Source: Psammoneis japonica
Lineage: Eukaryota
DNA length: 64,000 bases
Assembly: GCA_008632985.1 (NCBI GenBank)
Contig: QPGO01000102.1
Location: 62,001-126,000, forward strand
Reading direction: 5' to 3'
Notes under the pieces: generated by a model
The model's database searches: none
Seen by the model: the letters and a program-made list of their open reading frames with translations, nothing else
What the model was told of the DNA's origin: nothing
Shown here: positions 2,080-64,000 of the stretch, one piece after another
Numbering within the stretch: the stretch's first letter is position 1
How the letters are laid out: each line of letters opens with the position of its first letter
Position numbers and translations under genes: made by a program

Positions 2080-3793
2080 CAGCAAGAAAAATTTTGCATC
2101 ACACATCTGAACGAGAAAAATGCACTGGGCCACCACCGCGCTCATTTTTTTGTTGCAAACAGAGCGAACATCAACATGAAATGACAAACACGTGTTGCAT
2201 TTCATGAAAACATCCCGACCCGGGAAAAAATGAGATGTGTTGTTGTTCTTCATCGTGTGTCGTTGAGGGGGAAACACGTCATTTTCCCTGGGTCTGAGGG
2301 TTGGCTGGCCAGCGGCAGCTGTTGATTCCCAGAGTGAGCATTTGTGTTGGTTTGTTGTTTTCAATGTGGTGGTGCGCATCCTTGCTGACATTCTTCCAGT
2401 GGTGTCTCTGGTTTTGGCCCTCTGTGCAGCGTGTCTCCTGCCGCGGCTGGGTGCTGGGCGTGCTGCTGTGCAAAGCTCAGTCAGAAGCTTGCAGCAGCAA
2501 AAATGAGTGGCCACTCTTGCCAACACTGAGACGAGATTCATGCTGCAATGCCGAGACAAAAAAAAAACAGGCTGGGCTGTGCGAGAGTGGACGAAAAGCT
2601 TCTCCTGGCATGCGCTGCTCTGGCTGCTCTCTTGGCACTTTGGCCAAAGCTTGGCGCAACAGTGTTGAAAACTTCTGATGGACCTTTTCCAAGCTTGGTC
2701 CAGTCAAATCCATCATTGTGCTCAAACACCTGCAGGGGAAGCCTGGGCTGATGATGGTCAGCTGTGGCGTTGATCGCTCTCCAGCTGAAGTTGCCGCTGC
2801 GGCTTGCCAGCTGGGCCAGCGGTGCAGCAGAGCTGGCAACTCCCCACAAGTTTTTGTCTGACCAGAAAGGTGCCCTTTAAAGTGCAAAAGCAAGACAAGC
2901 TGCCGCTTTCTCTGTGAGCCAAAGATCCACACACCATTGGTGATGAGCCGTCATGCAAGCAAGCTTGCCAGATTGGCCTCACCACATGAGTGAGATCTCA
3001 ATGGTTTGGATGGCCAACTGACATGATGCTTGGTTTGCACTGCAAATGGCACAACACTGTGTGGTCTTTTGGCTGCATTTTTGGGCATGAAGCTCTGGCA
3101 AGTCCTCAGATGTGCTGAAAAATTCAGAGCCATCCTCTTGCACATTTGGCTCACAATTTGCACCAGCGTGCAAGCTCATCATGATGGCTGCCTTGTTCAT
3201 GTGCTCATGCTTGAAGGCAAGAACTGGCACAAACAGCAATGTTGTCTCATGGTGCTCAGTGCCAGCTTGGCTGTTGTTGTGCCAGGAGAGGAAAGAAAAC
3301 TCAAGAAAAAGGTTTCTCCTGCTCAGCTGCTCATGAAGCAGCTGGTTGCCATGCTCTGGCATTTTGCATCAAAAACACATCTGCTGTTTTGAAACGAAGC
3401 CCAAGTGAAGCCTCTTGTGCCTCCAAAACAAAAACAAACAGATGTGCCAAAGTCAGCTGTCATTGGGATGCAGCTGGAACTTTTGCAACATTGATGGCAA
3501 TTTTTGTGTGTGGCAAAGTGTGCTTTCATGCACTTGGTGCATGGCTGCATGTGCACAAAGTGCCCTCACTTTTCCGACTTCTGCCATCAAAATGAAATGA
3601 CTCATGATGCAGAGAGCTGGTCTTCAGGTGCAAACAAATGAACCCATGTCCAAAGCCTTCCCGACTTCTTGAGGCTCAACATCACCCAACCAGTGCAAGC
3701 ACCGATGTTCATGGTGTTGACATGGCCATGGTGTCTTTTGCAGTGATTCCCGTGTGTCGAAGAGGGACAGGACTGAAATCGGAAAACGTGACA
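2080..3793. other. TpA-depleted hypermutated island 1 (degenerate repeat or element, origin unidentified)
   Basis: Manual read finds one TA (TTAA at 2877-2880) in about 1.7 kb. TG/CA-rich, with Tyr-free Cys/His-rich spurious ORFs in all frames. Confidence 0.85.
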
Positions 3794-4041
3794 TACACAG
3801 AATGACCGAATCCGTATCGAGAATGGACGCAGCGCTATGCACTGACGAAAATAATGAAGTCTGATTTGATTGCTGCCCGCATCAGTAGAAATTGTAGTAA
3901 CTTTAGACGGCACCCTTTACACATGCACCCATAGATCTGAACCACTACGACTGGGGACAAAAAGCAGGACCACGTCCCATGTACTAATCAGATCTCTTTT
4001 TCATATCTGACTATCTTATAACCCAAATATTGATTCAAAGT

Positions 4042-4138
4042 TTACGTTGATTCTGTTTTCACTTCTGGAGCTTCATTCGTCGGCTTGTTTTCTGCAGCTT
4101 CGTTCTTGGCAGGTTGTGCCGGTGGTTTGTCATCTGCT

Positions 4139-4209
<71 letters not shown>

Positions 4210-4747
4210 CGGTTTGGTTTGTCATCTGCTGGTTTATCCGATGCTTCCGCTTTTACTGGTTGCTCCGTTGGCTTCTCGGCAGGAGTATCCTCTAGAGGTG
4301 TCTGTGCGGGCTTTTCAGAAGGCTTGTCAGCGACAGCTGTCTCCGCTGGTTTGCTGTCTTGCACCGTTTGTGCCGTTTGGCTGTTGGGATCCGCAAGTGG
4401 GGCTGCCCCAGGTTTTTTGCTTTCAACCTTTCTCCGAAGTTCTTCAGTCGTCTCAGCGATTTCTGTTTCATGCATCTTGATATCTTCTTTCAATTTATCA
4501 AGGTCTTGAATAGCCTTATGACGCAAGCTTGGAGTTGTTCCGGGGTGGTGTCTTCCTTCTCCTTTAAATCCAGGTACTCCACCCCAAAGGCTTTCTTACG
4601 AAGCAAGATTGCGTATTCCAACTTCTTGATGTACGCTTGCTCTTTTGTATTGGAGCAGCATGCAAAGATGGATGCACACAAGTTGGAGCAGCTCCTAGTG
4701 ATGTGCTCAATCAAAGTCTCTTCGGTAGGTTCCGACGACGACGCCAT
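4042..4747 (-). CDS. Hypothetical coiled-coil protein with Pro/Ala/Lys/Asp-rich tail; interrupted by a frameshift near 4515 and a poly(A) run
   Basis: MASSSEPTEETLIEH...EQLQACV joins KAIQDLDKLKEDIK...KPADDKP; after the A69 run it reads KPADDKPPAQPAKNEAAENKPTNEAPEVKTEST-TAA (4042-4044). Confidence 0.55.
4141..4209. repeat. T69 homopolymer flanked by a 21-bp direct repeat
   Basis: TGGTTTGTCATCTGCTGGTTT occurs at 4123-4143 and 4215-4235, either side of the run. Confidence 0.9.
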
Positions 4748-6652: not shown

Positions 6653-6857
6653 CTTTCTAGAAGACTTATCCATCAGGTCGTTGCACCAGCCACGCGCATC
6701 ATTCGAGACAGCTACAAGCAAGTCCACAAAATTACACGCCGCGAAAAATAGTTGCTGGGCTGTCGGTGTGCGGTAATTTTTCGAAGTTGTCACTAACTCG
6801 CCATAAAATGGCATCTGCTCAATCCCGATGCAAGTAGCAACACGGCTCTGCAATTAT

Positions 6858-15600: not shown

Positions 15601-18600
15601 GAGTTAGAAACATCCGAAGCAGTAGCCATCAGCACTGCAGTCTCGCAAAGAGCAATGGAATCGTCTTGCTTTTTCGCAGACTCCGGCTTTGCAAGTGGAG
15701 AAACTTTGAATTCTTCGCCACGTTTGGATATATCGCGTCCGGCGGATATCGAGCTTTCGTTATCTTTCCTGCGTCAACAAAATCTGTACCAGATTCTGGC
15801 TTTGCAGGCTCGGAATGCGTAGTGGCATCTTCTAGCTTCTTTTCCGACGACTCAGACGTTTTTGGCAGTGTAGCTATGGATTCATCCTCGACTGTTGCTT
15901 TAGGGGTGTAGGCGGATGCCAAGCTTCCACCTTTATCTCCGCCGTCAAGTACATCTGCTTCAGTCCGTGGCACTTCAGTCTCAGGAAAAGCACTCCTGTA
16001 ATCCGGGGTCTCGTCTTTGTTCGGAATGGGTTCGGCGGCAGCCAAGTCCATGGGTGCATGTTTCGATTCTTCGGCACGTGCTCTCATGTCCCGGCCTGCG
16101 GGTATCGACTTTGCATTTTCTTCCTCTGCATCAACAATGTCCGGTGCTGGCACTGACTTTCCAGTCTCGGCTTGAGCACTAGAATTGTCCCACTTCTCCT
16201 CAGTCTCTGAATTGGCTGGCATTGGCGCTTTTGATTCGTCCGCGACTGTGGCAGCAGCAGCGCTAACGGTTTTTGAGTATGCACTTTCTTCCTCTGCACC
16301 CACAGTATCCGATGCGTCGGCATAAGCACTGGAACTGACCCACTTTTCCTCAGTCTCTGACTTGGCTGGTATTGGCGCTTTAGATTCGTCCGCGAATGTC
16401 GCAGTAGCAGGGCCAACGGATTTTGAGCATGCGCTTTCTTCCTCTGCATCCACAGTATCGGATACGGCCAATGGCTTTCCAGTCTCTGAATGCGTACCGT
16501 CATTTTCCGGATTCTCATCAGTCTCCAACTCTAACTTGGGTTGAGCCTTCGATTCGCTAGCGCGTGCGAGAGTCCCAAACCTTCGAAGCTAGAGTTTCCG
16601 CGTTTTTCTGTTGCTTGAACAACATCCGGGTAGTAGCCAACGGCCCTGCAATCTCAGAATGAGCAATGGAGATATTATGCTTTGGTTCAGATTCCAACTT
16701 TGCAACTGACCAAGCTTTTAATTCTTCGCCACCTGTGATTATATCCCGGCCGGCGCATTTCAAGCTTTCATTATCTTGTCCTGCGTCAACAACATCTGCA
16801 TCAGATTCCTGCTTTGCAGGCTCGGAACGCGTACTAGCATCATCTAACTTCTTCTCCGACTCAGACGTGTCTGGCAGCGTACCTTTCATTTCTTTCTCGA
16901 GTGTCATCATGGCAAGGTCCACGGTTGTCAAACTTTCGCTTTTTTCTGCGCCGTGAGCTACATCTGATTCAGTCCGTGGCACTTCAGTGTCGGAAGAAAC
17001 TCTCCTGATATCCGGGGTCTCGTCATGGTTCGGATTGGGTTCGGCGGCAGCCAAGTCCATGGGTGCAGGTTTCGATTCTTCGGCACGTGCTCTCATGTCC
17101 GGCCTGCGGGTTTCGAGTTTGCATTTTCTCCCTTTGCATCTACAATATCCGGTGCTGGCAATGACTTTCCACCTTCGGCATGAGCATTGGCATTTTCCCG
17201 CTTCTCCTCAGTCTCTGACTTGGCTGGTATTGGCGCTTTCGATTCGTCCGCGAATGGGGCAGCAGCAGGGTCAACGGCTCTTGAGTATACACTTTTCCCT
17301 CTGCATTTACAGTATCCGATGCGGCCAACGGATTTCCACTCTCTGAATGCGTTCCGTCCTTGTCCGAATTCTCCTCATCTTCAACTCTGACTCAAGTGGG
17401 GCCTTCGATTCGTTAGGACGTGCGAGAGAAACCAAACCTTCGAAGCTAGAGTTTCCACGCTTTTCTGCTGCTTGGACAGCATCCGGAGCAGAAGACAACG
17501 GCATCGCAGCCTCGGAATGAGCAACAGAGTCATCCTGCTTTGGTTCAGACGAAGCTTTGAATTCTTCGCCACCTGTGGTTTCATCCCGACCGGCGCATTT
17601 CGAGCTTTCGTTATCTTCTCCTACATCAACAAAACCTGCATCAGCTTCTACAGTCTCGGAACGCGTACTGGCATCTTCTAGCTTCTCCGACTCAGACGTG
17701 TCTGGCAGCGTACCTTTCATTTCTTTCTCGAGTGTTATCATGGCAAGGTCCACGGTTGTCAAACTTTCGCTTTTTTCTGCGCCGTGAGCTACATCTGATT
17801 CAGTCCGTGGCACTTCAGTGTCGGAAGAAACTCTCCTGATATCCGGGGTCTCGTCATGGTTCGGATTGGGTTCGGCGGCAGCCAAGTCCATGGGTGCAGG
17901 TTTCGATTCTTCTACACGTGCTCTCATGTCTCGGCCTGCGGGTTTCGAGTTTGCATTTTCTCCTTGCATCTACAATATCCGGTGCTGGCACTGACTTTCC
18001 ACCTTCGGCATGAGCATTGGCATTTTCCCGCTTCTCCTCAGTCTCTGACTTGGCTGGTATTGGCGCTTTCGATTCGTCCGCGAATGGGCAGCAGCAGGGT
18101 CAACGGCTCTTGAGTATACACTTTTCCCTCTGCATTTACAGTATCCGATGCGGCCAACGGATTTCCACTCTCTGAATGCGTACCGTCCTTGTCCGAATTC
18201 TCCTCAGTCTTCAACTCTGACTCAAGTGGGCCTTCGATTCGTTAGGACGTGCGAGAGAAACCAAACCTTCGAAGCTAGAGTTTCCACGCTTTTCTGCTGC
18301 TTGGACAGCATCCGGAGCAGAAGACAACGGTATCGCAGCCTCGGAATGAGCAACAGAGTCATCCTGCTTTGGTTCAGACGAAGCTTTGAATTCTTCGCCA
18401 CCTGTGGTTTCATCCCGACCGGCGCATTTCGAGCTTTCGTTATCTTCTCCTACATCAACAAAACCTTCATCAGTTTCTACAGTCTCGGAACGCGTACTGG
18501 CATCTTCTAGCTTCTCCGACTCAGACTTGTCTGACAGTGTAGCTTTGGATTCTTCCTCGAGTGTCATTATGGCAGGGTCCGCGGTTGCCGAGCCTTCGGA

Positions 18601-40155: not shown

Positions 40156-40609
40156 GCTTCTCGGCCAATGCCATCAAACAAATACGCAATAAACTGGCGG
40201 CGGTAATTCAATACTGCATACGGCAGCAACAGCAGACGGGTTGGTGGCAGTCTAGTCGCTCTTGATCGCATCGTTGACACAGCGAAGTGCGAAAGGAGCC
40301 GCCGCCGCAGTGCCGGCAGCACACTCAAACTTCAAGTTGGATCGAGAAATTTAGCCTTCTGTAACTTACAGTGACGTACTACAGTATGTATTCTTATATT
40401 CCGTTTGCTCGCTCTGACATCCCCATTACCGGGTACGCGCCGGTGGCATTGCCGTACATCCTGAATCGCGCAACTCCTCGTCATCCTCTAAAGACTGGAG
40501 GAACTAACGCACAGCAGCCTTTTTGCTCCACTGATGGCTCTAGAGAGAGGCTAAAGTGGCAGCTAGCTGGCAGAAGCAGTTACAGTTATCAACCATGTCA
40601 GCTAACGTG

Positions 40610-43380: not shown

Positions 43381-43457
43381 GCCCTCATAGAAAATCCTTA
43401 CTGTAGATTTTTGATGGGTCGGACACTTCTTGACAGGACTACTACAGTACAGTAATA

Positions 43458-44412
43458 AATTGGTCGGTCATTTCTAGAGTCATGGTCATTGGTCGTCAAA
43501 ATTGAAAATGTCAAAAGATCCGCGGATCTGGCAGATCTCGGATAAGCTCGTCCGGTTTCTTGCCGCATGCCGATGCAAAACAAACTGAAAGACACGGAAA
43601 GATTCACAATGGTGATGTGTCCGNCCAAGAGAAGAGGATCTTCTCCTCCAAAGAGTGCCTCTTGCAATGAGCACATTTTCCGCCTGAGCAGCGCCGAGGT
43701 GTCGATGATGCTGAGACATTTGCAATGTGATGCTGAAGATCAAAAAAGCAAAGCTCGATGAGTGAGATTGTTGGAGGGAGGGGCGGCTCATGCACCGCCG
43801 AGCCACCGGCAGCTGAGGCAGCTGAAGGAAGAGCCCCAGGATCGGGTCGAGCGAATGGTGGGTCAACCAGAGGGATCCGATGCAACGCCACACGACCCTT
43901 CCTCAAATGTTCTAGGAAAGGCAGAGGGGGTGGAACGTCACATGATAAGATCCAATGTCGCTGTTCAGCACGATCGATTGAGGTACGACGAGATGGCGTT
44001 TTGTTGACTTTGTGCCGAAAAAAAGCCGACGATTGTACTAACCCTCATGTCTGGTTTTGTTGAATCCAATTTTTGAATGTTTCCGTTGGGGTGTCTTTTG
44101 GTCATTTACGTTAAATTTACTTATGAATATTATAACGGCCCGTAGATACACGAATGACCAAAGTGTAGATACACATGGCGAGCCACCCACAAAGAAAGCA
44201 AGTGGTCAATGCTCCCCGCAGGCCTGGTTTTATCTTGTTTTTTGGTTGGACACTTGCGTTAATTGGTCGGTCATTTCTAGAGTCATGGTCATTGATCGTC
44301 AGAATTGAAAATGTCAAAAGATCCGCGATCCAGATCTCAGATGCTCTCGTGCACCATGCCGATGCAAAACAAACTGAAAGACACGGAAAGATTCACAATG
44401 GTGATGTGTCCG
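43458..44412 (+). repeat. Diverged ~155-165 bp direct repeat (43458-43623 and 44261-44412) with an N at 43624; probable haplotype or scaffold join
   Basis: Both copies read AATTGGTCGGTCATTTCTAGAGTCATGG...GATTCACAATGGTGATGTGTCCG. The first stops exactly at the N; the second continues into the downstream gene. Confidence 0.85.
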
Positions 44413-45952: not shown

Positions 45953-46459
45953 GGCTCCTACACTGTGGACAGTTCTTTGACACCCTTTTTGATCCCCTCC
46001 TTTCCTCCTATATATACCTTCCTCTATAATCTTTTCTGTAGTTTTAGTTCTGCATTGGTTGGGTACGGCCGGTAGTCTTACTCGAGCTGCTAAATCTTGG
46101 TCCTATTTGTTCTTTGTACGGTAGGCGAGAAATGAGAAGCAGCGAGGAATACGGTGCAGAATGCCAACACAGCTAGTTCTACTGGGTGTGCTCGGTCCAT
46201 AAACACAGAACTTATCAATCGACAATGTGCGAGGTTTTGTTTGCCCATTAATTTTAAAGTTGGGTGGTCCGTTGGTTCTGTGAGTCGGAACGAATTGAAA
46301 CTGGATGTGTGACGCGATTCAAGTTTCCCGCTCTGTGCGGAGCCAACTGCTGTCATTTTCTCGACAACAATTGCCTCGTTGATGCTGTTGACAGTCCTTT
46401 CTTTGCAACCATGTCTCTGTGGACATGTGTCTACAGGCAAGTGATGCAGCTGGAGTCTA

Positions 46460-49400: not shown

Positions 49401-50380
49401 GAAAAGTCTGTCTGTCTGTTCTTAGCGAATTTCAACTTTGCGAAAAATGGACTTGACTGTTTTCTGATCAGGCGCATTTTTCTTCAACACATTTGCAACA
49501 AAAACGCACCTGACCCAATGACAGTCAAGTCTGTTCTTTTTGCACAAATTGTGTGAACACAACAGTTTCAGCACAAAAACATGTAGATTCCACAGGCATC
49601 CACAATTGTTTTGTGCTTTTTACATCACGGGTCATTTTCGAAAGATTCCTGTTGGGTGTGCAGAGCAATCTCTCTGTGACAGCATTGCCAGAGATTGTGA
49701 CATCCAAAAACAGAGTGGCGTGCTTCTTGGCTTCTTGTTTTCTCTCACAGTCAGAGCACAGCTGCTTTTTAAAAGCCCTCAAGGCTCAGTTCCTTCTGCT
49801 GAGGAGATGGCAGTCATGGTGACTGAGAACGTGCAACACGGCCCTGAACATGGAGAGCACCACCCAAAGAAAGAGAGTGTGAGAGTGCGAGAGTGATGTG
49901 CAAAATGACTGTGCCCACAAGCAGTGCAGTGCAACATCTCCATGACACACCAGCTGGAGAATGTGATCCCCGCTGGGAATGATGAGATCACCATGAGAAA
50001 TCCCAACATGATCTCAAAGCAGTTGAGTCGAACACACACCATTGAGCAAGAAAATGTGGAGAAGAGGAGGGGGGATGACTCGATTGGATGCCGACACAAA
50101 ACATTGGCATCAAACCAAAGTTTCGAACTTTTGTGAATGAGGGCCTCAAACCTGGCAACGACTGACATGTGAGCTTCTTCCTTTTTCTCTCCCTTTTTCC
50201 TCCTCCTTTTTTCATGCATTCGGAGCCACCCGCACCACAGGCTCTGCCCGCACCGCTGTGGATCATCGAATCTTGGGGAATCTGGAATCCGTCGCCCTTT
50301 CTTTTACTGCAAAACATTGCTGAACATGATTTTTGAAGAAGCAACCGCAATTGTCGCAATGATGCGTTGAAGTTGCCGTC
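46460..50380. other. TpA-depleted hypermutated island 4 (degenerate element, origin unidentified)
   Basis: About a dozen TA in ~3.9 kb by manual read, mostly in TTA/TAA; CpG very scarce in the core. Confidence 0.85.
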
Positions 50381-50409
50381 GCTACATTCTTTGGCTTGGT
50401 TTTGGACGC

Positions 50410-52104
50410 ATGAGAGTGAGCTTTGTGTGGTTCAGCTTGTCTTTGTTGTGGCTTCGAATTGGATCCGGAAAATCGTTCAGCCCCTTTACCAACAGGATGC
50501 GTGCAACAAGAGCGGCGGCAATTGCTTCCTCTTGTCGCCTTACTCGTAGTAGCAGCAAACGAGCGAAGTCTACGCTCGCTGCGATAGATTTTCGTGACGA
50601 GGACGAGTCATTTACCTTGCGAGGAGATGGCGTGGAGGATGAAACTATCTCATCTTTCTCAGGGTCAGTCGGCCAAAAAAGAAGAAAACGAAACCCAAAA
50701 CCTGCTGTTGTGACGCCTCCTCCACAACCAAGAGCAAAGAGTAGGCAAGCTGTGTCGACAAGAGGGGGCCAGTGACACGACGTTTGAAAACAATTATCTC
50801 CACTGAATCTTCTATTAAACCTTCACCTGACGAACCTCTCGATTCTGAGGACCAAGTTGTCGAAATGCCTCGTGACGAAGAGTTTCTGGACTTGAACGTG
50901 TCTCCGGCGGAGCTCCGTCCTTCCACTACTCTAACAACTGGTCAGTGTTTTCACTGGAGAGCAACGGTGGATCAATCCGCCGATCAAAATTCAGCTTCTG
51001 CATGGGGCTCCTGTAACGCAACAGAATGGGTCGGTGTGCTACCAATACCTGCAGCGGATAATTCCAATACCTTACACTCCGTGGTGGCGATTCGCGAGAC
51101 TCCAACCACCACTCTGTATCGTGCCTTGTCCTTGCCAGCAATGTAACACAGGAGCGTGTCGGCTGTGTCTTGAAGATTACTTTCAGGTGGATTCAAGTCC
51201 TTCTTGAAACAGCTTTATGAGGATTGGAGTGCGGCATGTCCAAGGTTGGCACGAATAGCGCATTGCATTCCAGGGGTTCGTGTGGTACAACAAGATCCAT
51301 GGGAATGCTTGGTGAGCTTTCTCTGTTCCAGTAACAACAACATTCCAAGAATCACCAAGATGCTAAATTCTATTCGACAAACATACGGGGCACCCTTGGC
51401 AACCGTGTCACTGCCCGCTCGCAACGAAGAAGACCGTGGTGAACTTGTCACCTTTTTCTCGTTTCCCACCTTGCAGATTCTGAGAATGCGCGCAACAGAC
51501 GATGACTTGAGAACCAAGTGTGGAATGGGATATCGTGCAAAGTATCTCATAAAGACAATCAGTATTCTGCAGGAACTTGGAGGAGAGGAATTTCTAAAGA
51601 AGCTGCGTTCCAACAGTGATCCATGTGCAGTGCAACAAGAGCTCTGCCAGTTTCACGGCGTTGGTCCAAAGGTGGCAGACTGTGTGGCTCTTTTTTCGCT
51701 CAACCAAGTAGACGCGATTCCGGTCGACGTTCATGTATGGAACGTGGCACGGAGAGATTATGACAAGGACGATAGTTTGAAAATGGCCAAGAGTCTTACG
51801 CCCACGATTTACAACCAAGTCGGGGGATTGTTCCGAGCAAAATTCCCAGAGAAGGCAGGATGGGCGCACTCTCTGTTGTTTGTAGCTGAGTTGCCTAGTT
51901 TTAGGCCGCTGCTACCTGATGATTTGGTCGCGGAAATGGATCAAGTAAGTTCTCGATCCCCCTTTCTTCATTTGTCAATCTTTCTGCTGCAAATTCTCAT
52001 GCAGCCATTCTACTATTACACTCCCAAAGTTTCGGGAATCCGAAAAGGAAAAGAAGAAGAAAAAGGATGCTGACAAGAAAGGGAAAGGGAAGAAGAAGGC
52101 ATGA
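50410..52104 (+). CDS. OGG1: 8-oxoguanine DNA glycosylase/AP lyase; frameshifts near 50770 and 51135-51200
   Basis: LRPSTTLTTGQCFHW, GVRVVQQDPWECLVSFLCSSNNNIPRI, GMGYRAKY, HhH-GPD motif GVGPKVADCVALFSL..AIPVDVHVW, AGWAHSLLF. Intron 51945-52029 gives a Lys-rich tail ending at TGA 52104. Confidence 0.92.
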
Positions 52105-52740
52105 TGAGCAGTGGTGTCGCGCACTTATTGGTAGGGAACTGACTCTACAGAAAGGGTTGAGATTCGACCACGGGGCATTGCAGCGATAGCTCTCAAGGTG
52201 GGAATACCGGAATACTGCCAACGGCTAGTTTCAACAGCTACTTGTAGTGGCATTGAGTAATCAGGAGAACAATCAAAAAATAGAAAACGGATGCAGTCGC
52301 TCTCCCTGGCGCGCCATTATACCAGATATGTGGAAAAAGTAGCCCATCCAAGGTGAAGTTGCAAATAGAATAGCCTGTACAGTACAGACTGTACAGTACG
52401 GTACTGTAGGTCGCGGCGGTGGCAATAACGCGTCACTATCGAAAATACTGAAGTTTTCATGATTTATATTTATTCTATGAATGAAGAAATAATTGACGGT
52501 ACGACAAAAAGACTGGCGAGCGCGCACAAAAGTGACGCATGACGACCTACCGGGAGAGCGAGCGAGCTCACACCCGACAACCGACAACCGCACGTTGAAC
52601 ATCAGCACTGGCGAACGCAAAGAACAAAAAACACAAGGACGTGCGTCTGTTGCTGTCAAAATCAATCATCTTCTATCGCTACTACCCTTGCAAGTTGCAA
52701 TGCTGATTTGCAGTTGATGCCATAGAACAATTAAAATAAA

Positions 52741-55700
52741 ATGTCGTCTTCTTCAGTAACCAAAGACGGCCCCTCGCTGGTGGAAGAAGGCCAGAATGCG
52801 CTAATGATGCTTCTCTTTATTCTAGCAGCCGTGTTTTGGCTGATTCAAAGAGAAAAGAATAATACGCTACTCAAAGAGATACAGCTGTTGGAGCAAAAGG
52901 CTCAAATGAATGGAACAAAGAAAAATCAAGAACAGCAACACGCTCGTCTAATAAAGAAAATTGAAACGTTGGAGAACAGAGTTCAAATCAATCACAAGGA
53001 GCATCGGAACGATCTAAAGGTTGTGGTTCAACGCGCAGTTGAAAAAAGTAAACGAGAGCATGAAAAGGAAATAAAAGAGCTCGAATCAAAATGGGAGCAA
53101 GAGAGGCAAGAAGCGCAAGAGCAACACCGAATAAAGGAAAAAGAATTGCAGGAGAAATTATCGCTAGTTAAAGAAGAAGCAGAGCGGAAGTTGCAAAAGC
53201 GAGAGAAAGAATTGATAGAAAAACACGAGCGAAGAGAAAAGGAGTTGCTACAAAAATTGGCTCGCTTTGAGCATGAGGAAGCGTTACGGATGAAACGCAT
53301 AGAGGAAAAGTCAGAAGAATTTCAGACTCCGGTTTCGTCTCGGGAATTCTCCGTGTCGTCAAGCCTGGTCATGTTTGATGCCTTGTCCTCGCCCCAACTA
53401 GAAAAAAACGCTATGAATGTCGAATCAAACGCAATAGCAGCCTGTCAACAAAATGGACATGGAAATGTCACGGCTGACTCGAGACGAAATGTAACAGAAT
53501 TGCGAAACAATGACGTGGTGTACGACAGTGGCAAGAAAGAGCTGTTATCCAAGGCCGGAAGCAAAAGATTTCGCAAGTTATGTCAAACTTCCGCTTTGAA
53601 TTACGCGAACAGTGAGAAACTAGCCAAACCCTTGGTGGCATTAGAAGTTGTTCAGCAATGGAGACGACAAGATCCAGAAGGACGGTTTCTCGAGCTTGAC
53701 AAGTCCGTCAACAAATGGAATGATGTCGGCGACAAACGAGCGTTGGATATAACTAGTCGTCTGCTACGTGACATGTCCTCCGCGAATGGAAATGGCAAGA
53801 AGCAGAGGGATGAGACAAAACCGATAATGGCCAGAGATGAAAGGTGGACAACGAAAAGTGGGGATGCCATTGAAGAGGATAAACCTACCCTTCGAAAGGT
53901 CTCTTATATGGACGCCGACCAATCTAGGTCGGGAACGATTGGATTGAGTTCAAGGAACGGGACTTTGGAAAATAGCAAGTCTGAGAAGATGTCTACTGTG
54001 GTTGAAAGGGCAGCCAAGAAGACATCGAAGTCCAAGAGTTCGAAAAAGAAGAGTCCAATAATTCATTGCCACGCTACGGAAGAACCCTGCCCAACCATCA
54101 CCCAGGTATTGAAGCGACTGAAGGACACGTCCGTTACGAAGCTTTCCTGCCAAGAAACCGTCACAGATGACGATGTTGTGGCCATTTGCGGAGTGCTTCG
54201 CGTCAAGACGTGCTCCCTTGTCTCGCTATCGTTGAGAAGAAACAATTTGACAGCGACGGCAGCGCAAGCTGTGGGAGGATTGTTGGAAGTGAACGAGTCG
54301 ATTCTAGAATTGGACCTTGCGAGCAACAACATTGGGTCCAACGGGATTTTGGCATTGACCGAACCTCTTGCTCTTCACAACAAAACTCTTGTCCGCCTTG
54401 TGTTGGAAGACAACAACTTGTCAGCAAAGTGCGCAACGTCTATTGGTCGCCTGCTTCGACACAACACGACCCTGAAAGAGCTTCGCCTCGGTGGATCGAG
54501 CCTAGTTGGAAGTTATCACTTTGGTCACCATGGGATCAAAGTTATTGCTCCAGACTTGCAGCACAATAGCAGTTTGGAGACGCTAGCTCTTAATCACAAC
54601 AAATTGGGAACGAAGGGTGCCTTATTGCTGGCAACCAAGGTTCTCAATAAGGACAACGCCATAAGCAGTCTTGACTTATCGTGTAACCGCATTGGTCACA
54701 AGGGCACCGAGGCTCTCTCGCAAGTTCTGCTCGATGACAAGGTCATTCGCAGTTTGAGTCTGAAATCGAATGACTTGGAAAGCGCCGGAGCTCACAGTCT
54801 TGTATGCGTCCTGCGGTTCAACTCGACTCTAACATTGTTAAAACTCGGCAACAATAAGATTGGTGACGATGGTGCTGTAGCGCTGGCTGGTGGACTTGAA
54901 TCCAACTCTTCCCTCGAATCAATCTACCTCGACTGGAACGGTATTGGAAACCGAGGTACAGAAGCAATTTCATCGAGTCTAAGGCAAAATAGCGCTCTCA
55001 AGTTTCTGGATTTGAGCGCAAATCAAATTGGGCCTGCTGGTGCAGATAAACTTGCCGATGCTCTTCATTACAACCTTACTTTGAAAGAATTGAATGTCGA
55101 GAGGAACCAGATTGGAGACGATGGCGTCCGCGCTCTTGGAGGTTTGGTCACGTCGTGTCGTGACAGTGTTTTTCAGTCTCTCCACTGGAAGGATAATAAT
55201 CTCTCTGATGGCTGTTTCGAATGGATGAGTCTCAACGTAGTCCAGAACGATAATTCCAACGGAATTGAAGAAGTCGAGACTGAGTCTACTCCGGTTGAAG
55301 GCAATATCAATGGAATCGAAGAAGTTGAGGCTGAAACTATGCCACCATTGGAGAGTATATCGCCATCGAGTTCGGTAACTTCAACGGCATGTCCACTGCC
55401 TATTCAACCAAAGGCTACTGCTACATTTCCCGAAAGCGAGACAAATCAGCCCATTTGGCTCAAGGCAATGCTAAAGGATTTGAAGGAGAATCGAACGGCA
55501 TGTGTTGATTTGACGAAGAAGTCCGGCGTTAACAATGACGTTTTCGTTGAGTTGATGACTGTGCTGTCTGCAAACAAGTCTACCCGAACACTTTATCTAG
55601 GAGCCAACGTGAATAACGTTATGGCGACTGGAATCAGAAGCCTGGCATCAGTTTTAGAAGAAAATTCTTGCTTGGAACGGCTCTACATTTGTGACTGTCA

Positions 55701-56187
55701 AAACGTTGGAGACAAGGGTCTTGCAATGATTGCCGAGGCGCTAAAGAAAAACAAGTGTTTGAAAACTCTTTCGGTCGTTTCCTGTGGTGTTACAGCCGCA
55801 TCCATGGGCGTAGTCGCGGGTATGCTCCGACAAAATAAGACCTTGCAGCGACTCCACTTGTCAAAAAACAGCATTGGCGACGCTGGCATGAAGCTTCTTG
55901 GAGGATGCTTGGAGAAACAAAATTCCACCTTGAAATCGCTTGCGGTAGCCTACAATGGTATTACCGACCAGGGTTTGACCCATGTCATGCGCGCTTCGCA
56001 AGTCACGGAGTTGCGTTTGGACGGCAACGAAATTACCGATGAAGGAGCGAGGCAATGGTCCAATGCTGCTTCAGGTAAAGGCCCGTGCCAGTATGGGTTT
56101 GTAGGATTGGCTGGTAATAAAATTTCGGCTGAGGGCAAAAACGCGTTAAGATGGTGTTTGCCCGATAGTGCCAAGCTTATGATCTGA
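52741..56187 (+). CDS. Membrane-anchored coiled-coil + DUF6824-type + RNI-like leucine-rich-repeat protein (1148 aa)
   Basis: N-terminal TM (LMMLLFILAAVFWLI), E/K/Q coiled coil, NNDVVYDSG...GSKRFRKL...PEGRFLE...WNDVGD, two blocks of LxxLxLxxNxIGxxG repeats; uninterrupted ORF. Confidence 0.88.
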   Translation: MSSSSVTKDGPSLVEEGQNALMMLLFILAAVFWLIQREKNNTLLKEIQLLEQKAQMNGTKKNQEQQHARLIKKIETLENRVQINHKEHRNDLKVVVQRAVEKSKREHEKEIKELESKWEQERQEAQEQHRIKEKELQEKLSLVKEEAERKLQKREKELIEKHERREKELLQKLARFEHEEALRMKRIEEKSEEFQTPVSSREFSVSSSLVMFDALSSPQLEKNAMNVESNAIAACQQNGHGNVTADSRRNVTELRNNDVVYDSGKKELLSKAGSKRFRKLCQTSALNYANSEKLAKPLVALEVVQQWRRQDPEGRFLELDKSVNKWNDVGDKRALDITSRLLRDMSSANGNGKKQRDETKPIMARDERWTTKSGDAIEEDKPTLRKVSYMDADQSRSGTIGLSSRNGTLENSKSEKMSTVVERAAKKTSKSKSSKKKSPIIHCHATEEPCPTITQVLKRLKDTSVTKLSCQETVTDDDVVAICGVLRVKTCSLVSLSLRRNNLTATAAQAVGGLLEVNESILELDLASNNIGSNGILALTEPLALHNKTLVRLVLEDNNLSAKCATSIGRLLRHNTTLKELRLGGSSLVGSYHFGHHGIKVIAPDLQHNSSLETLALNHNKLGTKGALLLATKVLNKDNAISSLDLSCNRIGHKGTEALSQVLLDDKVIRSLSLKSNDLESAGAHSLVCVLRFNSTLTLLKLGNNKIGDDGAVALAGGLESNSSLESIYLDWNGIGNRGTEAISSSLRQNSALKFLDLSANQIGPAGADKLADALHYNLTLKELNVERNQIGDDGVRALGGLVTSCRDSVFQSLHWKDNNLSDGCFEWMSLNVVQNDNSNGIEEVETESTPVEGNINGIEEVEAETMPPLESISPSSSVTSTACPLPIQPKATATFPESETNQPIWLKAMLKDLKENRTACVDLTKKSGVNNDVFVELMTVLSANKSTRTLYLGANVNNVMATGIRSLASVLEENSCLERLYICDCQNVGDKGLAMIAEALKKNKCLKTLSVVSCGVTAASMGVVAGMLRQNKTLQRLHLSKNSIGDAGMKLLGGCLEKQNSTLKSLAVAYNGITDQGLTHVMRASQVTELRLDGNEITDEGARQWSNAASGKGPCQYGFVGLAGNKISAEGKNALRWCLPDSAKLMI

Positions 56188-57616: not shown

Positions 57617-58650
57617 TCGCGAGATTTCCAGTGCGTCCGTGCGGCGCACGCCATTTCTTCCATCATCTCCATGTTGTGTGTCCCCAAATCACATGATGAA
57701 GATGCTGCTGAGAGGAGAAGAGCCAAGGCATCTCCAGCCAGCTGCTGACCAAAGAATCTTGTTTAGAATTTGCACTGAAAGAGCCTCTGTCAAGAATCAG
57801 CTTGTTTGGAGCTTTTGGCGAGTGCTGGACAGGCTTGAGGGTCAGCTCAATTGGAAAAATTGAGCTGGCAATGCCCCCAAAAGTCCGCTGACAGGTGGAC
57901 TTTCTTCAGCCAGTGGCTGGTTGGAGACATCCCCTGTGTGCTGTGTTGTGTGTTTGGTGTTTGTTGCTATGCTTTTTTCTTGTTTTCTTTTGTGCATCTG
58001 TCTGTCGTCTGTCAACCTTCGAAGGATGGGCCCACCATGTGCTGCCACCGTGCATGCAACCACATCTGTCCACGTCTGTGCGGTGAATTTCCATCACGTG
58101 GCACACCTGCACAATCTCACAAGCAAGAGGGCAAGAGTGTCTTTGCCAACACCACATGCACACACCACTCACCACTGAGTTCACAACTCTTCATGGGGTG
58201 CTGCGTGCCACCCGCCGTGCCCATGACAAACCCCACAAATCACACAGAATGCAGGCAGTGAGTGAATCATCAGAGTTGGCATTAAAAAATTGACTTCAAG
58301 TCATGCTTGAATGTGTGCTCATTTGTCCTTGTCAGCATCCACCATGCTGGCACTCAAATCTTCTGCTTGCTTTTGAGCAAGACAGCCTCATTGTTGCTCT
58401 CCTTGGCAGCCTCCACGGCAGCACAATTTCAATGTCACTCCTGCAAGCTGGGTGTTTGCAATCCAGGAATCAAATGCCCAATTCATCCAGAATTGGAGCA
58501 GCCTGAGCCACAATGCAAAAGACATCAAAGATCTGTTGGTGTGCAGAATTGCACAGGATTACATGGTGCCGTGTGTTGTGGAATGAGCATGTGTTGTGGA
58601 GAAAGTGCGGAAATCTTTTGCAGCACTCAAAGCATAAAAACAGAGTTGAT
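57617..58650. other. TpA-depleted hypermutated island 5
   Basis: About five TA in ~1 kb, four in TTA/TAA context; TG/CA-rich; sits between NAXE and the ankyrin-TIR gene. Confidence 0.75.
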
Positions 58651-61406: not shown

Positions 61407-61759
61407 TCCTTTTACATACCGGTACAATCACCGCACTCCAAAACTCCCAACACTGCATCGGATGCGATGCCTTTGTTGATAAGGCCGGCTATCCAGCAGT
61501 TCCTCTCAGCCAGATAGAAGAAGAAGAGAAAAGGAAAGGAAGGAAAAAATAAACATTAATGAAGGTTTGAAAGGGTGCGCTGCAGTGCCGTAGTGCGTAC
61601 AGTAGTGAAGACGGACGTAGACAGGTGCAGACGCGCTACGTGGAATTTGGTGCGAAGTGTCATACGTTTACGTGCGCAGAAGGATGTGGATCGCCAACGG
61701 CTGGAATAAAGCAGCACACCACACAGCAGTGAGTGCAGCTCTGTCATCACGGCGCTAGA

Positions 61760-63218
61760 ATGGCGGAGGACAACATCGTTGCGTCTGGCAAAGCAGAGGA
61801 TGTAGCAGCTCCGGAAGTCATGGCAGAACTCACGGGCGCCGAAGGCGTGGCGGCAGCTGCCATGACTGCACTTGGCGCCGAGGGAAGTGCCGAGGGTGTG
61901 TCCGTCGAGTCCGAACGCGCAAGGATGTCGGAGAAGCTGGCGCAGTCCCAAACTGAAAAGAGTGAGAAAGCCGTGCCGCCGGAGCCAACCTTTCAAATTT
62001 GTGGTTGGAATGAAGCACAGCAGCTGGGTTGCACCGCCGAGCAGCTCCTTGGGGCCGGTTGCAAGATCGAGTTGGTGGGTGATCAGGCCACCTTTGTGAA
62101 ACCGGAGGTCCTGCCTTTTTGCAGCGGCAAAAGCGAGGAGGCAGCCAAGCCCGCGGCCAAAGTGGTTGCGAAAGCAACGGCGGAAGAGGAAGAAGAAGGA
62201 AAGCAATTTCCGGACCCCAACGATCCGTCATTCGACTTGTGGGACTGGGTGTTGCGGCACGAAAAATCCGATAAATTCCAGGAGTCCATGTGCCTGATGA
62301 AGGATGCGCCGAACAATCCCAACCTCTGGTTCCCCGCACTGGGAGAACTGGGGTGCATCAGGAGCGACCCTGAAGCCGTCGCGAATGCTCACAGCAAACA
62401 CTGCAAGTGGGTGTGGAGGTGCCGCACGGAAGTCGGCGAGAGGGGCATCCCAGACTCGACGCCGAAGAGCAACAAAGTGTTCAAGACCGCCATCGAGGCT
62501 TTCGAAGCGGGGTGGTTGCTCGCACTGGTCTGTCTCGTGAAGAGAGCAAGTGCAGAAGTGTGCACATTTGGATGAGGCGCCGCGTCACTTAACCTGCGTT
62601 GTTTTGCCTCGAAAAGTCCGTTCGCTCCGCAGGCCCCAAGGAGGTGGAGGTGGGCGAGCTGCGCGTGTCACAACGGAGGGGCGCAGGCATTGGTTTTTTT
62701 GCCTTGTGCCAGTTCCAGAAAGGCAGCACGGTTGGAATCTACGTGGGCCCCAGGGTGCCCGGTACGACGAGGAGCCACTCGTGGTGCGACCACGACAGCA
62801 AGTTTGGAGAAGACCACAGCGTGTGCTGCTCCACCATCCGTGACAGCGAGGGCCACTGTGTCACAGTGGAGCCAAAACGCTTGATTTTAGTGGTCCAGGG
62901 AACAAGAGTTCCCATCCACTCTACCTCAGAATGCACTGCGTGAACGATGCCACCGAGTCGTTCAAGGACAAGAAGAAGATCAAGGCAAGCCAACACACGG
63001 ACAACAACTGCAAGTTCTACAACGACGGGTGCTTGGCAGTCACGAAGCGAATCATGCCCGGGGAGGAATTTCTCTGCAGATGCAACTTGGACGAATCGGA
63101 GAAGAAGAAGAAGAAGAGGAAGGCGACGTCGGGTGCCATGAATCGGAAGAAGAAATCGTGTCTACTCCCCAAGTCGGGGGGGAGAAGCTCTACGTCTGGC
63201 AAAATGTCTGCCATGTAG
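61760..63218 (+). pseudogene. Degenerate SET-domain protein gene
   Basis: ELRVSQRRGAGIGFFALCQFQKGSTVGIYVG (SET-N), MHCVNDA...NNCKF...LAVTKRIMPGEEFLCRCN (SET-C; the GEEL.xxY Tyr is replaced by Cys). Stop or frame breaks near 62575 and 62900. Confidence 0.7.
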
Positions 63219-63328
63219 TGTGCTCTGTAAATTAGCAGCACAGTGTGTTGGTGTTTTTCAGCGAAACTGTGGCATTGGTTGGAAAGGCGTGGCCCCAATT
63301 GTGGTTCGAAAAATGGGAACGAGGAAGA

Positions 63329-63455
63329 ACAGAAAGTCGGTAAATTTACGCAAATCCAGCAAATTAGCAGGTGCCTGCACAGTCGCCTGAGCACAGAAAG
63401 TCAGTAAATTTACGCAAATTTAGCAAGTTATTTTGCACCATCACAGTCGCCTGAG
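63329..63455. repeat. Two 64-bp tandem copies, each containing the palindrome GTAAATTTAC
   Basis: ACAGAAAGTC(G/A)GTAAATTTACGCAAAT at 63329 and 63393; CACAGTCGCCTGAG at 63378 and 63442. Confidence 0.85.
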
Positions 63456-64000
63456 AATGGTCTCTTCCTCTAGAGAAAGGGGGATCGAATTGTTGTTCTT
63501 GCCCACTGCAGCACTCTTCAGGTGGAGAGACATGCAAAAGAACTCGTCGTTTGAGTTTGTCCTGCTGGAGATGCAGTGGCACTTGGTGGGGTTAAAAATG
63601 ATGACATCACCAAGCCGGAGTGCAACGGAGATGCCTTCGGTGGGGAAGCAGAAGCATGCCACAATCCCGTCATTCATGGTGCAGCTGCCGGACGGAGGGA
63701 CTCCCACCACGGTGACTGCTGACAGGAAGAAGTCCTGGTCCCAATGGGCATTGAGGAAGACATTGCGCCCAGCCGCCAGAGAGGAGAAAATGCCATCTGA
63801 CCGCACCAGGGATTTCCAGTTGTGAAACTTTTTGACACGAGCGACACCCTCAAGGATGGCACAGTCCACGTGCTCATTGACAAGGTGCTCCATGCGTGAA
63901 AGAAGTCTGGTGAGGTGGTGAGTGTGTTGGTCGGCCATGCCAGGCTGCTTGCAAGAAATTGGAGTGTCCCTCGTGGCAGCCAGGCCAATCGTGGAACACT
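63441..64000 (-). pseudogene. TET/JBP-like 2OG-Fe(II) dioxygenase, Tyr-depleted by hypermutation (5' end outside window)
   Basis: FSSLAAGRNVFLNAHWDQDFFLSAVTVV...FCFPTEGISVALRLGDVIIFNPTKCHCISSR...CMSLHLKSAAVG: HxD...H double-stranded beta-helix pattern. Frame is open to the window end; no Tyr in about 185 aa. Confidence 0.6.

Follow-up and report, generated by a model that had tools for sequence, protein, structure and literature searches.

Why do several sharply bounded segments of DNA from a probable diatom have almost no TA dinucleotides? The window, that is, the whole stretch of 64,000 nt analysed here, contains 1833 TA, separated by a median of 19 nt. We found five sharply bounded islands in which the observed/expected ratio (o/e) of TpA is ~0.03 and that of TG/CA ~1.7. 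This confirms five of the TpA-erased, TG/CA-rich islands described in an earlier note on this DNA, whose manual TA counts (1, 2 and ~4) are correct for islands 1, 2 and 3. Its boundaries hold for two islands (2079-3794 and 40604-43388) and were revised for the others: island 2 ends at 31022 rather than 31200, island 4 at 50305 rather than 50380, and island 5 spans 57764-58560 rather than 57617-58650.

2079-3794, no strand assigned: island 1, TA- and CG-erased, non-coding (TA 1 vs 60 expected)
28630-31022, no strand assigned: island 2, TA- and CG-erased (TA 2 vs 84 expected)
40604-43388, minus strand: island 3, tandem duplicate of gene A, dead, TA-erased throughout (TA 4 vs 98 expected)
46459-50305, no strand assigned: island 4, the largest (TA 11 vs 135 expected)
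57764-58560, no strand assigned: island 5, short, TA- and CG-erased (TA 2 vs 28 expected, P = 3e-10)

Pooled, the islands (12,734 nt) contain 24 TA (o/e 0.03), 273 CG (0.35), 1353 TG (1.69) and 1368 CA (1.73); the background (51,265 nt) has o/e values of 0.54, 1.01, 1.10 and 1.17 for TA, CG, TG and CA, respectively. The near equality of TG and CA makes the bias strand-symmetric. CpG, whose decay through 5-methylcytosine (5mC) the earlier note had mentioned but underplayed, is thus depleted together with TA, and its o/e is 0.07-0.4 in island cores. Neither AA (1.28 in islands vs 1.18 in background) nor TT (1.29 vs 1.14) is depleted. Relative to the background rate, the TA counts strictly inside the islands have Poisson P-values from 3e-10 to 2e-43. 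The edges could be resolved to tens of bases: within 300 bp of an edge there are 0-1 TA on the island side and 7-19 on the outer side. The YpR fraction is the same in islands and background (0.2371 vs 0.2379; sd 0.009, 29 background windows), as expected from transition-only conversion. The islands consist of complex, non-repetitive sequence, and the background around them is gene-dense.

The islands were also scored in 1-kb windows by Rho_TpA and Rho_CA+TG, following the cluster definition in a preprint on the alga Bigelowiella natans (Mettrop et al., bioRxiv 10.64898/2026.01.13.699255, April 2026). Island 4 passes, with three (47001-50000) or four (46501-50500) consecutive windows in which Rho_TpA is <=0.09 and Rho_CA+TG >=1.56. 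In islands 1-3 one or two consecutive windows pass, and in island 5 a single window does in each register; the length of these four islands, below 3 kb, accounts for the smaller numbers. Island 1 has a Rho_TpA of 0.02-0.19 and a Rho_CA+TG of 1.62-1.79, and a Pfam search of its 13 ORFs gave zero matches. Island 2 (CG o/e 0.13-0.25) fills a gene-sized slot within a minus-strand gene array, with no Pfam match and no homolog elsewhere in the window. No homolog was found for an island 4 ORF of 246 aa (47168-47905), and island 5 sits between two minus-strand genes. Coding (R/Y 3-base) periodicity is absent from islands 1, 2, 4 and 5 (0.2, 0.1 and 0.3 in islands 1, 2 and 4). These four islands lack an identified ancestor, and their history is therefore read from composition.

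The sole reference copy among the islands is that of island 3:

37449-40384, minus strand: gene A, the parent copy, intact and spliced, encoding two DUF6824 domains; used as the mutation-spectrum reference

Gene A has four introns of 88-95 nt, which begin with GT and end with AG on the minus strand and are skipped by the X2 contigs, and its spliced ORF encodes 644 aa with a DUF6824 match (E = 2e-19). Its TA o/e is 0.57 and its CG o/e 1.07. Island 3 lies at an offset of ~3030 nt and is collinear with 37795-40125 in blastn and tblastx comparisons; protein A matches it by tblastn over 254 aa (E = 9e-50, 41% identity). The reading frame of the island contains in-frame TGA stops and frame shifts; Tyr has been replaced by Cys, and Arg by Cys or Trp. 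By these alignments, island 3 is a pseudogene copy of the adjoining expressed gene A.

Comparison of the two copies revealed the direction of change. In well-aligned blocks (1780 columns), none of the 59 TA of gene A is kept in island 3: 19 became CA and 15 TG, and the remaining 25 show other changes, fitting the background divergence of ~32% (451/1418 other sites changed). CG is kept at 10 of 98 sites, and 58 became CA (35) or TG (23). The whole alignment gave similar figures: TA kept at 0/95 sites with 55 CA/TG, and CG kept at 11/134 with 69 converted to CA/TG. As the pair is old (~32% at other sites), the alignment is partly uncertain and these counts include changes of gene A itself. Judged from this comparison, the shown direction of change is from TA and CG to TG/CA, through transitions that keep the purine/pyrimidine pattern.

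A second comparison comes from inside island 4:

49387-49654, no strand assigned: copy of a high-copy repeat, partly erased

The summed word depth of this segment is ~2900, against ~57 in its single-copy flanks. We compared by eye the loose-end consensus of the other genomic copies with the window. Consensus TA corresponds to TG at 49373/4 and 49532/3 and to CA at about 49590/1, one TA is kept (49584), and consensus CG corresponds to CA at four places in 49580-49605. At the level of this comparison, the repeat copy is seen to carry the same directional TA to TG/CA and CG to CA changes as island 3. The locus-targeted A:T to G:C transition at TpA proposed in the earlier note is thus supported by both the paralog and the repeat comparison; with the directional TA to TG/CA excess found and island sequence present without change in a DNA run, that proposal stands. 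Island 3 is a host-gene duplicate and not viral, and island 4 holds a high-copy repeat.

If the islands were functional non-coding loci under selection to avoid TA and CG (because of a nuclease, TA-targeting transposons or UpA/CpG-sensing RNA decay), their complex, non-repetitive sequence would be readily understood. However, such selection would accept any substitution, whereas the replacements are transitions that preserve the YpR fraction; island 3 is a decaying pseudogene with stops in a conserved domain; and an Rfam search found no RNA family. We regard selection as a highly improbable cause.

We also considered whether modified bases at TpA and CpG were misread as TG/CA during sequencing or assembly. 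A contig of 1056 nt from the DNA run (X1) matches 40734-41789 with 0 differences at a depth of 40 (57-60 in the flanks); this agrees exactly with the island, although the sole DNA run found comes from one sample and study, has no platform on record, and could be the very run from which the assembly was made, hence not independent. Strand-specific misreading would presumably yield pure all-TG or all-CA versions, yet former TA sites carry interleaved outcomes on the same strand (31 CA and 24 TG). Island 3 also contains frameshifts, stops and ~32% ordinary divergence, and, according to the available part of the B. natans preprint, lines of that alga produced the same signature de novo. Thus, an artefact is scarcely credible.

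How local is the process? The introns of gene A retain 23 TA in 366 nt (TA o/e 0.47-1.48), and ten intergenic spacers (219-1054 nt) have a TA o/e of 0.37-1.05. Introns and spacers therefore retain TA, which indicates that the process is local. These data bear on the possibility that a neutral, genome-wide spectrum erases TA and CG everywhere, that selection preserves them, and that a compact genome has no junk DNA other than the islands. The absence of coding periodicity in islands 1, 2, 4 and 5, the pseudogene in island 3 and the gene-dense background are all in line with this idea. However, it does not explain TA in introns and spacers or edges sharp to tens of bases. By our estimate, TpA would have to be lost ~100 times faster than it is regained for an equilibrium o/e of 0.03, and such a difference would show at synonymous and intron sites. 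We therefore find a lack of targeting very unlikely.

The alignment also bears on timing. C to T changes in CpC and CpT contexts reach 18-22% (every C turned T counted; island 3 vs gene A), and new TA was formed from CA at 1/136 sites and from TG at 0/100. TG to CA flips occurred at 9/100 sites (1.3 expected) and CA to TG flips at 7/136 (0.9 expected). The absence of newly formed TA and the excess of double flips suggest that the process continues or was recent; to judge from this one pair of copies, TA erasure looks continuous.

The outcomes at former TA sites are coordinated between neighbouring sites by strand. Over the whole alignment, 55 TA-derived events fall into 17 runs (28.0 +/- 3.6 expected, P = 0.003), and in good blocks 34 events fall into 10 runs (17.8 +/- 2.7, P = 0.004); the conversion patches in island 3 are ~90-330 bp long. 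CG-derived outcomes are not strand-coordinated (69 events, 31 runs vs 33.4, P = 0.32). This coordination is based on a single alignment with 55 events; a runs test that needs no reference copy, applied to the other islands, gave no significant result. We saw no flanking-base preference beyond TpA that would point further to the enzyme. At the 5' end of island 3 (43113-43388) there are 0 TA but the CG o/e is 1.05, whereas the rest of the island is CG-erased. Together with the strand runs, this shows that CpG loss is separable from TA loss and is read as a second process.

It is likely that the islands are silent DNA under a local, continuing TpA to TpG/CpA mutation, to which a separable CpG loss is added. 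Silencing or a heterochromatic state would mark the targets. The TpA step may be an enzymatic adenine deamination, in which A becomes inosine and is read as G, acting on one exposed strand at a time, and the enzyme could be a deaminase of the ADAT2/TadA polynucleotide type, as proposed in the B. natans preprint. The outcome would be irreversible inactivation, with Tyr changed to Cys/His and Arg to Cys/Trp; reading frames would be opened because TAA and TAG vanish. CpG loss would most likely represent 5mC deamination in the methylated part of an island, and the 5' end of island 3, where CpG is retained, could then be a patch without methylation. As the earlier note suggested, the process may have a role in genome defence and a chemistry of adenine deamination or thymine modification.

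The CpG half has well-known parallels. Deamination of 5mC at methylated CpG in vertebrates and plants turns CpG into TpG/CpA within silenced DNA only, with events independent per site. Island 3 has this signature (CG loss with reciprocal TG/CA gain), and 5mC decay would account for the CpG half here but cannot remove TpA. In basidiomycete repeats, a TCG to TTG change is described in the accessible part of one report (PMC3318451).

Two other mutators were compared and rejected. In phase 2 of somatic hypermutation, cytosine deamination is followed by errors of Pol eta at WA motifs. Like the process proposed here, this phase links cytosine deamination to A to G changes at TA within a bounded locus. 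However, Pol eta also hits AA, which is not depleted in the islands. Fungal RIP resembles the present case in that dense transitions irreversibly inactivate duplicated or repeated DNA and leave a sharp-edged dinucleotide footprint. RIP changes C to T mainly at CpA and so creates TpA, whereas TpA is destroyed here, and RIP hits both copies of a duplication, whereas gene A is spared with its splicing and open frame. Thus, TpA is not raised and only one of two copies is mutated. A diatom DNMT4 is related to RID, and the available part of the report describes no RIP-like footprint (PMC9998398).

The earlier note knew of no named mechanism for TpA loss, a statement now out of date: TA-targeted hypermutation is reported so far in one other alga only, B. 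natans (10.64898/2026.01.13.699255). As far as the accessible text of that preprint goes, TpA-only hypermutation of integrated silent viral DNA was established experimentally, with a de novo rate ~1000-fold above the genome in mutation-accumulation lines. As here, changes are TpA to TpG/CpA at TpA only, targets are confined (in B. natans at least one is transcriptionally silent), and kilobase clusters are TpA-depleted, CpA+TpG-enriched and mostly unannotated. The TpA frequency is 0.0018 in its low-TpA CDS subgroup and 24/12,727 = 0.0019 in the islands. On the other hand, B. natans is a chlorarachniophyte (Rhizaria), and its targets are NCLDV and virophage DNA; here, a host gene duplicated in tandem and a repeat copy are hit. 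Its spectrum in the available text is A:T to G:C only, without mention of CpG, whereas CpG also becomes TpG/CpA here; its hypermutable regions still have 3.3-9.2% TpA, whereas erasure here is nearly complete; and that text describes no strand-coordinated patches such as those in island 3. The window would thus extend TpA hypermutation to a probable diatom and a host gene duplicate and add a separable CpG decay.

As to the putative enzyme, ADAT2, ADAT3 and TadA deaminate A (the natural substrate being preceded by U/T), and some also C in DNA. To our knowledge, in no organism has ADAT2/TadA activity on chromosomal DNA in vivo been shown as a silencing system. An enzyme of this kind would turn the A of TpA into G, perhaps while the DNA is single-stranded, which would agree with the patches in island 3. 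No gene for an ADAT2/TadA-type deaminase was found within the 64-kb window. DNA activity is described for amphioxus ADAT2, a polynucleotide deaminase, in the part of the report available (PMC10354150), and for Trypanosoma ADAT2 in work cited in the accessible text of 10.64898/2026.01.13.699255. A wider and more tentative hypothesis is that chromatin-guided TpA erasure is an old silencing system shared across SAR algae that, alongside cytosine methylation, acts in strand-coordinated patches, the pattern expected of a single-strand adenine deaminase, on any silenced diatom DNA, including surplus gene copies. If so, it would match fungal RIP in function while leaving the reverse footprint, and would not be a peculiarity of one chlorarachniophyte.

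The sixth island of the earlier note (~61700-64000) is not a single one. It consists of two separate stretches with ~1 kb and 19 TA between them:

61803-62590, plus strand: island 6, TA-free, CpG-retaining, coding-like (TA 1 vs 28 expected)
63593-64000, no strand assigned: island 7, TA-free, coding-like, truncated by the window end (TA 0 vs 14 expected, P = 7e-7)

Both keep CpG (o/e ~0.8) and have a coding-like 3-base periodicity, and they are a different, CpG-retaining kind. Island 6 (GC 0.59, CG o/e ~0.83, R/Y periodicity 7.9) contains a 271-aa ORF with zero Tyr in its translation, for which no Pfam match or homolog was found; island 7 (periodicity 8.7) gave no Pfam match.

These stretches bear on whether a real, targeted process uses a chemistry other than adenine deamination. 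Thymine could be oxidised at TpA by a TET/JBP-type enzyme, with 5hmU or 5fU mispairing with G to give T to C, or a mismatch repair biased from T:G to C:G, or of the very-short-patch type, could be recruited to silent chromatin. 5fU can mispair with G, and very-short-patch repair has a precedent in E. coli. A to G and T to C on opposite strands are indistinguishable, both giving TpA to CpA/TpG. Both thymine and 5mC carry a methyl group at position 5 of the pyrimidine ring and stand in self-complementary YpR steps, so that one chemistry might unify TA and CG loss. The available part of one report describes a precedent in dinoflagellates, a 5hmU-making enzyme that silences transposons (PMC11572971). 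However, TA is lost without CG at 43113-43388 and in islands 6 and 7, and strand coordination is confined to the TA outcomes, which speaks against a single chemistry for both losses. Repair biased from T:G to C:G would be expected to preserve CpG, yet CpG is depleted. Such chemistry is unlikely, though worth bearing in mind, and adenine deamination is the preferred TpA step.

One more stretch with this composition lies close to the gene A duplicate:

43543-43913, no strand assigned: TA-free, CpG-normal stretch upstream of island 3 (371 nt; 1 TA, TA o/e 0.05; CG o/e 0.79)

Recounting the window, which has a G+C content of 49% and 1833 TA dinucleotides at a median spacing of 19 nt, we found five islands from which TA has been almost completely erased, with Poisson P-values for the deficit between 3e-10 and 2e-43. 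Their coordinates and internal TA counts are listed below with the numbers predicted from the background rate, and an earlier note had both the coordinates and its manual counts essentially correct.

TA-erased islands and their internal TA counts
2079-3794: island 1, 1 TA against 60 expected
28630-31022: island 2, 2 TA against 84 expected
40604-43388: island 3, 4 TA against 98 expected
46459-50305: island 4, 11 TA against 135 expected
57764-58560: island 5, 2 TA against 28 expected

A sixth island had been proposed at ~61700-64000. TA-free DNA is indeed present there, but as two stretches, 61803-62590 and 63593-64000 (islands 6 and 7), which keep CpG at an observed/expected (o/e) ratio of about 0.8 and are separated by ~1 kb with 19 TA. 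When the seven TA-free stretches were pooled (12,734 nt), the o/e ratios were 0.03 for TA, 0.35 for CG, 1.69 for TG and 1.73 for CA, compared with 0.54, 1.01, 1.10 and 1.17 in the remaining 51,265 nt. The earlier description of TG/CA-rich, TA-poor islands therefore holds for the loss of TA, with the correction that CpG is depleted as well. Because TG and CA are equally frequent in the pooled stretches (1353 and 1368), the bias is strand-symmetric. The island edges are sharp: the first 300 bp inside contain 0-1 TA and the 300 bp outside 7-19. Pyrimidine-purine steps make up the same fraction of the islands (0.2371) as of the background (0.2379, sd 0.009 among 29 background windows), and G+C is also the same, which is what would be predicted for ordinary sequence converted by transitions at TA and CG alone.

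An origin of the islands from microsatellites or tandem repeats was ruled out, as the sequence is complex and TRF made no call within them; a repeat search in the islands returned short chance pairs and one 42-nt inverted repeat within a repeat of island 4, and nothing else. Among 105 ORFs of 70 aa or more from the islands, none had an above-threshold Pfam match, and three had weak matches at chance level (E = 0.002-0.007); this test is insensitive, since even the domain remnants of island 3 described below went undetected. No homologs of the ORFs at 61760-62572 and 47168-47905 were found at E <= 0.01 among proteins of near length. A BLAST search with purine/pyrimidine-recoded sequences was discarded, its statistics being uncalibrated for a two-letter alphabet and its output consisting of thousands of chance matches. 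Coding-like 3-base purine/pyrimidine periodicity was present in islands 6 and 7 (scores of 7.9 and 8.7; shuffles had a mean of 1 and a 99th percentile of 5.7) and absent in islands 1, 2, 4 and 5. As introns and indels destroy this periodicity too (the intact gene next to island 3 scored only 3.5), these four islands may or may not derive from dead genes.

In a tblastx comparison of the islands with the window, a match was found for island 3 only. By blastn, tblastx and tblastn this island is collinear with the adjoining 37795-40125, offset by about 3030 nt, that is, with its intact neighbour:

37449-40384, minus strand: gene A, spliced, with two DUF6824 domains

DUF6824 is a domain of diatoms and other stramenopiles, which makes the organism probably a diatom. 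Contigs of one sequencing run (X2) omit four segments of gene A, each of 88-95 nt with GT..AG ends on the minus strand, indicating that the gene is spliced and expressed; the joined exons form an open frame of 644 aa that includes both DUF6824 domains. The predicted protein matched island 3 with E = 9e-50 (41% identity over 254 aa), and a further segment showed 60% identity over 58 aa. In-frame TGA stops interrupt the conserved domain of the island copy and its GRG motif contains a deletion; the copy also carries frame shifts and replacements of Tyr by Cys and of Arg by Cys or Trp. These features indicate that island 3 is a dead tandem duplicate of a host gene, introns included. The duplicated unit of 3030 nt is predicted to end at about 43633, near the sole N of the window (43624).

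Gene A was used as a reference for the mutation spectrum of its dead copy. When the two copies were aligned globally (59% identity over 2385 aligned columns), none of the 95 TA of gene A was kept in island 3, 55 of them being CA or TG now, and 11 of 134 CG were kept, with 69 now CA or TG. Within the 1780 well-aligned columns, TA is kept at 0 of 59 sites (19 CA, 15 TG) and CG at 10 of 98 (35 CA, 23 TG). Other sites in these columns changed in 451 of 1418 cases (32%), including 242 transitions, so that about 48% of dinucleotides would be expected to survive by chance. Gene A itself has TA at an o/e of 0.57 and CG at 1.07. Its four introns hold 23 TA in 366 nt, and in ten intergenic spacers (219-1054 nt) the o/e ratio of TA ranges from 0.37 to 1.05; weakly constrained DNA outside the islands has thus not been erased.

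Island 4 may offer a second, independent case. In another, DNA-like run (X1), summed word depth reaches about 2900 over its segment 49387-49654, compared with about 57 in single-copy flanks, identifying this segment as a copy of a high-copy repeat. Against TG at 49373/4 and 49532/3 and CA at about 49590/1 in the window, copies elsewhere read TA; four CA within 49580-49605 correspond to CG in those copies, and a single TA is retained. The comparison was made by eye on consensus stretches of 14-30 letters from 1-7 contigs representing parts of copies off the window, and is supporting rather than decisive. A directional excess of TA to TG/CA changes, which the earlier note had proposed to look for in repeat alignments, was therefore seen both in the island 3/gene A pair and in the repeat copy. 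The same segment holds the 42-nt inverted repeat, which is imperfect (49443-49484/49497-49538), and may be a MITE-like element. Another high-copy repeat is located at 44199-44231 (word depth about 1200 in X1, flanks about 57).

New TA are also nearly absent from island 3. From CA and TG, ordinary mutation (C to T, G to A) would by now be expected to have produced roughly two dozen in the aligned part; we observed CA to TA at 1 of 136 sites and TG to TA at 0 of 100. C to T changes in CpC and CpT contexts amount to 18-22% when every C turned T is counted regardless of its neighbour's fate. Double changes were in excess: 9 of 100 TG had become CA, with 1.3 expected were the two changes independent, and 7 of 136 CA had become TG (0.9 expected); most other dinucleotides were within about two-fold of expectation. 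This spectrum fits a continuing erasure of TA rather than a single old burst in a pair that is old by its 32% divergence at other sites. Newly formed TA or CG would quickly be resolved to TG or CA, in a repeating cycle; a minority of the double changes could instead have arisen in the lineage of gene A.

The loss of TA is separable from that of CG. At 43113-43388, the 5' end of island 3 and the counterpart of gene A's 5' UTR, there is no TA but CG has an o/e of 1.05; 43543-43913 and islands 6 and 7 are likewise TA-free with CpG retained. The two types of site also differ in their arrangement along island 3. Whether a former TA is now TG or CA indicates which strand's A was changed, and these outcomes are clustered: the full set of 55 events falls into 17 runs (shuffles, 28.0 +/- 3.6; P = 0.003) and the 34 events of well-aligned blocks into 10 (17.8 +/- 2.7, P = 0.004), the longer runs covering 4-6 sites and about 90-330 bp. 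Former CG sites in island 3 showed no such pattern (69 events, 31 runs, 33.4 in shuffles, P = 0.32). TA conversion thus seems to proceed in patches, each on a single strand, and the CG changes resemble separate events such as spontaneous 5mC deamination would produce. At converted TA sites there was no flanking-base preference, and neighbouring bases did not influence the strand. A runs test on TG/CA order that needs no reference was significant in no island (z from -1.55 to +1.37); it is underpowered, since island 3 also gave no significance.

We also considered whether the letters are real. The reads come from three runs on one sample in one study and may be the assembly's own source. An X1 contig of 1056 nt is identical to 40734-41789, with a depth of 40 against 57-60 in the flanks. 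If modified bases had been misread, symmetric modified sites should yield all-TG and all-CA versions according to the strand read, whereas the island has both interleaved on one strand; the pseudogene features of island 3 also speak against this artefact, which we regard as unlikely. X2 is listed as 'DNA?', yet its omission of the gene A introns marks it as cDNA-like. It gave no cover over 40339-43673 and 46342-50343, and no RNA run is listed for this DNA; neither blank was counted as evidence. X1 contains in addition a diverged form of island 3, with 107 other letters and 49 gaps over 41760-43295 and adjacent T>C and G>A pairs at 41831/2, 41867/8 and 41901/2, which may stem from the second haplotype or from a further copy. 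In a single X1 contig, 40010 is linked directly to 43047 and the 3036 nt between them are missing (shorter side 30 nt); this could reflect a haplotype lacking the tandem duplication or a fortuitous junction of paralogous ends.

The closest known system is TpA hypermutation in mutation-accumulation lines of the chlorarachniophyte Bigelowiella natans (Mettrop et al., bioRxiv 10.64898/2026.01.13.699255, 14 April 2026). In that work, two insertions, a transcriptionally silent NCLDV of about 186 kb and a virophage, were hypermutated in only some of the lines; the rate, about 6e-7 per site and generation, exceeded that of the genome about 1000-fold. Nearly all changes were A to G or T to C, each of them at TpA, and an ADAT2-type adenine deaminase was proposed. 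Our literature search found TpA-specific hypermutation in this preprint only, and none for diatoms. The TpA frequency of the islands (0.0019) is similar to that of a B. natans CDS subgroup (0.0018). Under the B. natans cluster definition, island 4 qualifies with 3-4 passing windows, and islands 1-3 have one or two and island 5 one because they are shorter than 3 kb. The present case differs in its host, a probable diatom; in its targets, a host gene duplicate and a repeat copy instead of viral inserts; in near-complete erasure; in the accompanying loss of CpG, which the preprint text available does not mention; and in strand-coordinated patches, which that text does not describe. Were the window from B. 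natans itself, the finding would not be new, but this is unlikely, since the B. natans genome is intron-rich and this DNA is found in one study only.

Fungal RIP is a functional analogue, but its defining features are missing here: RIP creates TpA and mutates both members of a duplication, whereas in the islands TpA is destroyed and gene A, the intact partner of island 3, is untouched. For diatom DNMT4, a relative of RID, the available part of PMC9998398 reports no known function and no RIP-like footprint. Mutagenesis of the Pol eta type at WA sites is unsupported, as AA/TT is not depleted in the islands.

Taken together, the spectrum of the island 3/gene A pair, the island-4 repeat and the sharp edges support the earlier suggestion of locus-targeted A:T to G:C transitions at TpA. 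The islands are likely to reflect an ongoing hypermutation of TpA to TpG/CpA that is confined locally and acts on silent DNA, of the B. natans kind, together with a separable decay of CpG; from this we infer an enzyme, a targeting signal and a role in defence. It would be a phenomenon very recently described in B. natans rather than a categorically new system. The prior record of a process removing one dinucleotide from chosen loci is, as far as the literature search shows, that single 2026 preprint on viral inserts in one rhizarian alga. If true, our reading would carry the phenomenon into diatoms, suggesting a system widespread among ecologically dominant phytoplankton, and to host gene duplicates, so that it may shape gene-family evolution and pseudogene decay beyond antiviral defence. 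Gene A and island 3, as a natural pair, and the repeat family would then serve for measuring the spectrum, the patch size and the relation to methylation. As diatoms can be transformed, the enzyme behind the process, which might be a DNA adenine deaminase of natural origin, would become testable, and the system would be a tractable test bed. Such islands also yield stacks of spurious Cys/His-rich ORFs, which can mislead gene prediction.

The ORFs flanking the islands belong to ordinary eukaryotic genes, with uninterrupted frames of 836-1148 aa and introns of 88-95 nt where seen:

31382-37163, minus strand: pyruvate:NADP+ oxidoreductase-type fusion (POR_N, PFOR_II, POR, EKR, TPP_enzyme_C, flavodoxin, FAD and NAD binding)
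Other flanking genes: an ankyrin protein, an LRR protein with DUF6824 and a YjeF_N protein

The fusion joins pyruvate:ferredoxin oxidoreductase to a flavodoxin/FAD/NAD reductase in three long ORFs, apparently split by two short introns. A homolog search with the ORF 52741-56187 returned four proteins, none of which is named. HhH-GPD base-excision glycosylases form a superfamily whose members remove damaged or deaminated bases, and a 237-aa ORF beside island 4 (51360-52073, plus strand) has a weak, sub-threshold match to it (E = 9e-5, 23.2 bits against a cut-off of 26.2); its position is probably coincidental. About 350 nt to the right of island 1 lies a perfect run of 69 T (4141-4209), which, read on the minus strand, would be the poly(A) tail of a retro-copied element to its right. 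The minus-strand gene array contains tandem repeats of about two copies with 75-87% matches at 16167-16463 (150 nt), 19907-20059 (72 nt) and 20408-20779 (198 nt), the last inside the ORF 20203-21147. The motif ACAGTACAGTA is shared by 43440-43460, which lies upstream of island 3 in a gap that contains TA, and by 52375-52408, where, upstream of the LRR gene, it occurs as a 14-nt tandem repeat.
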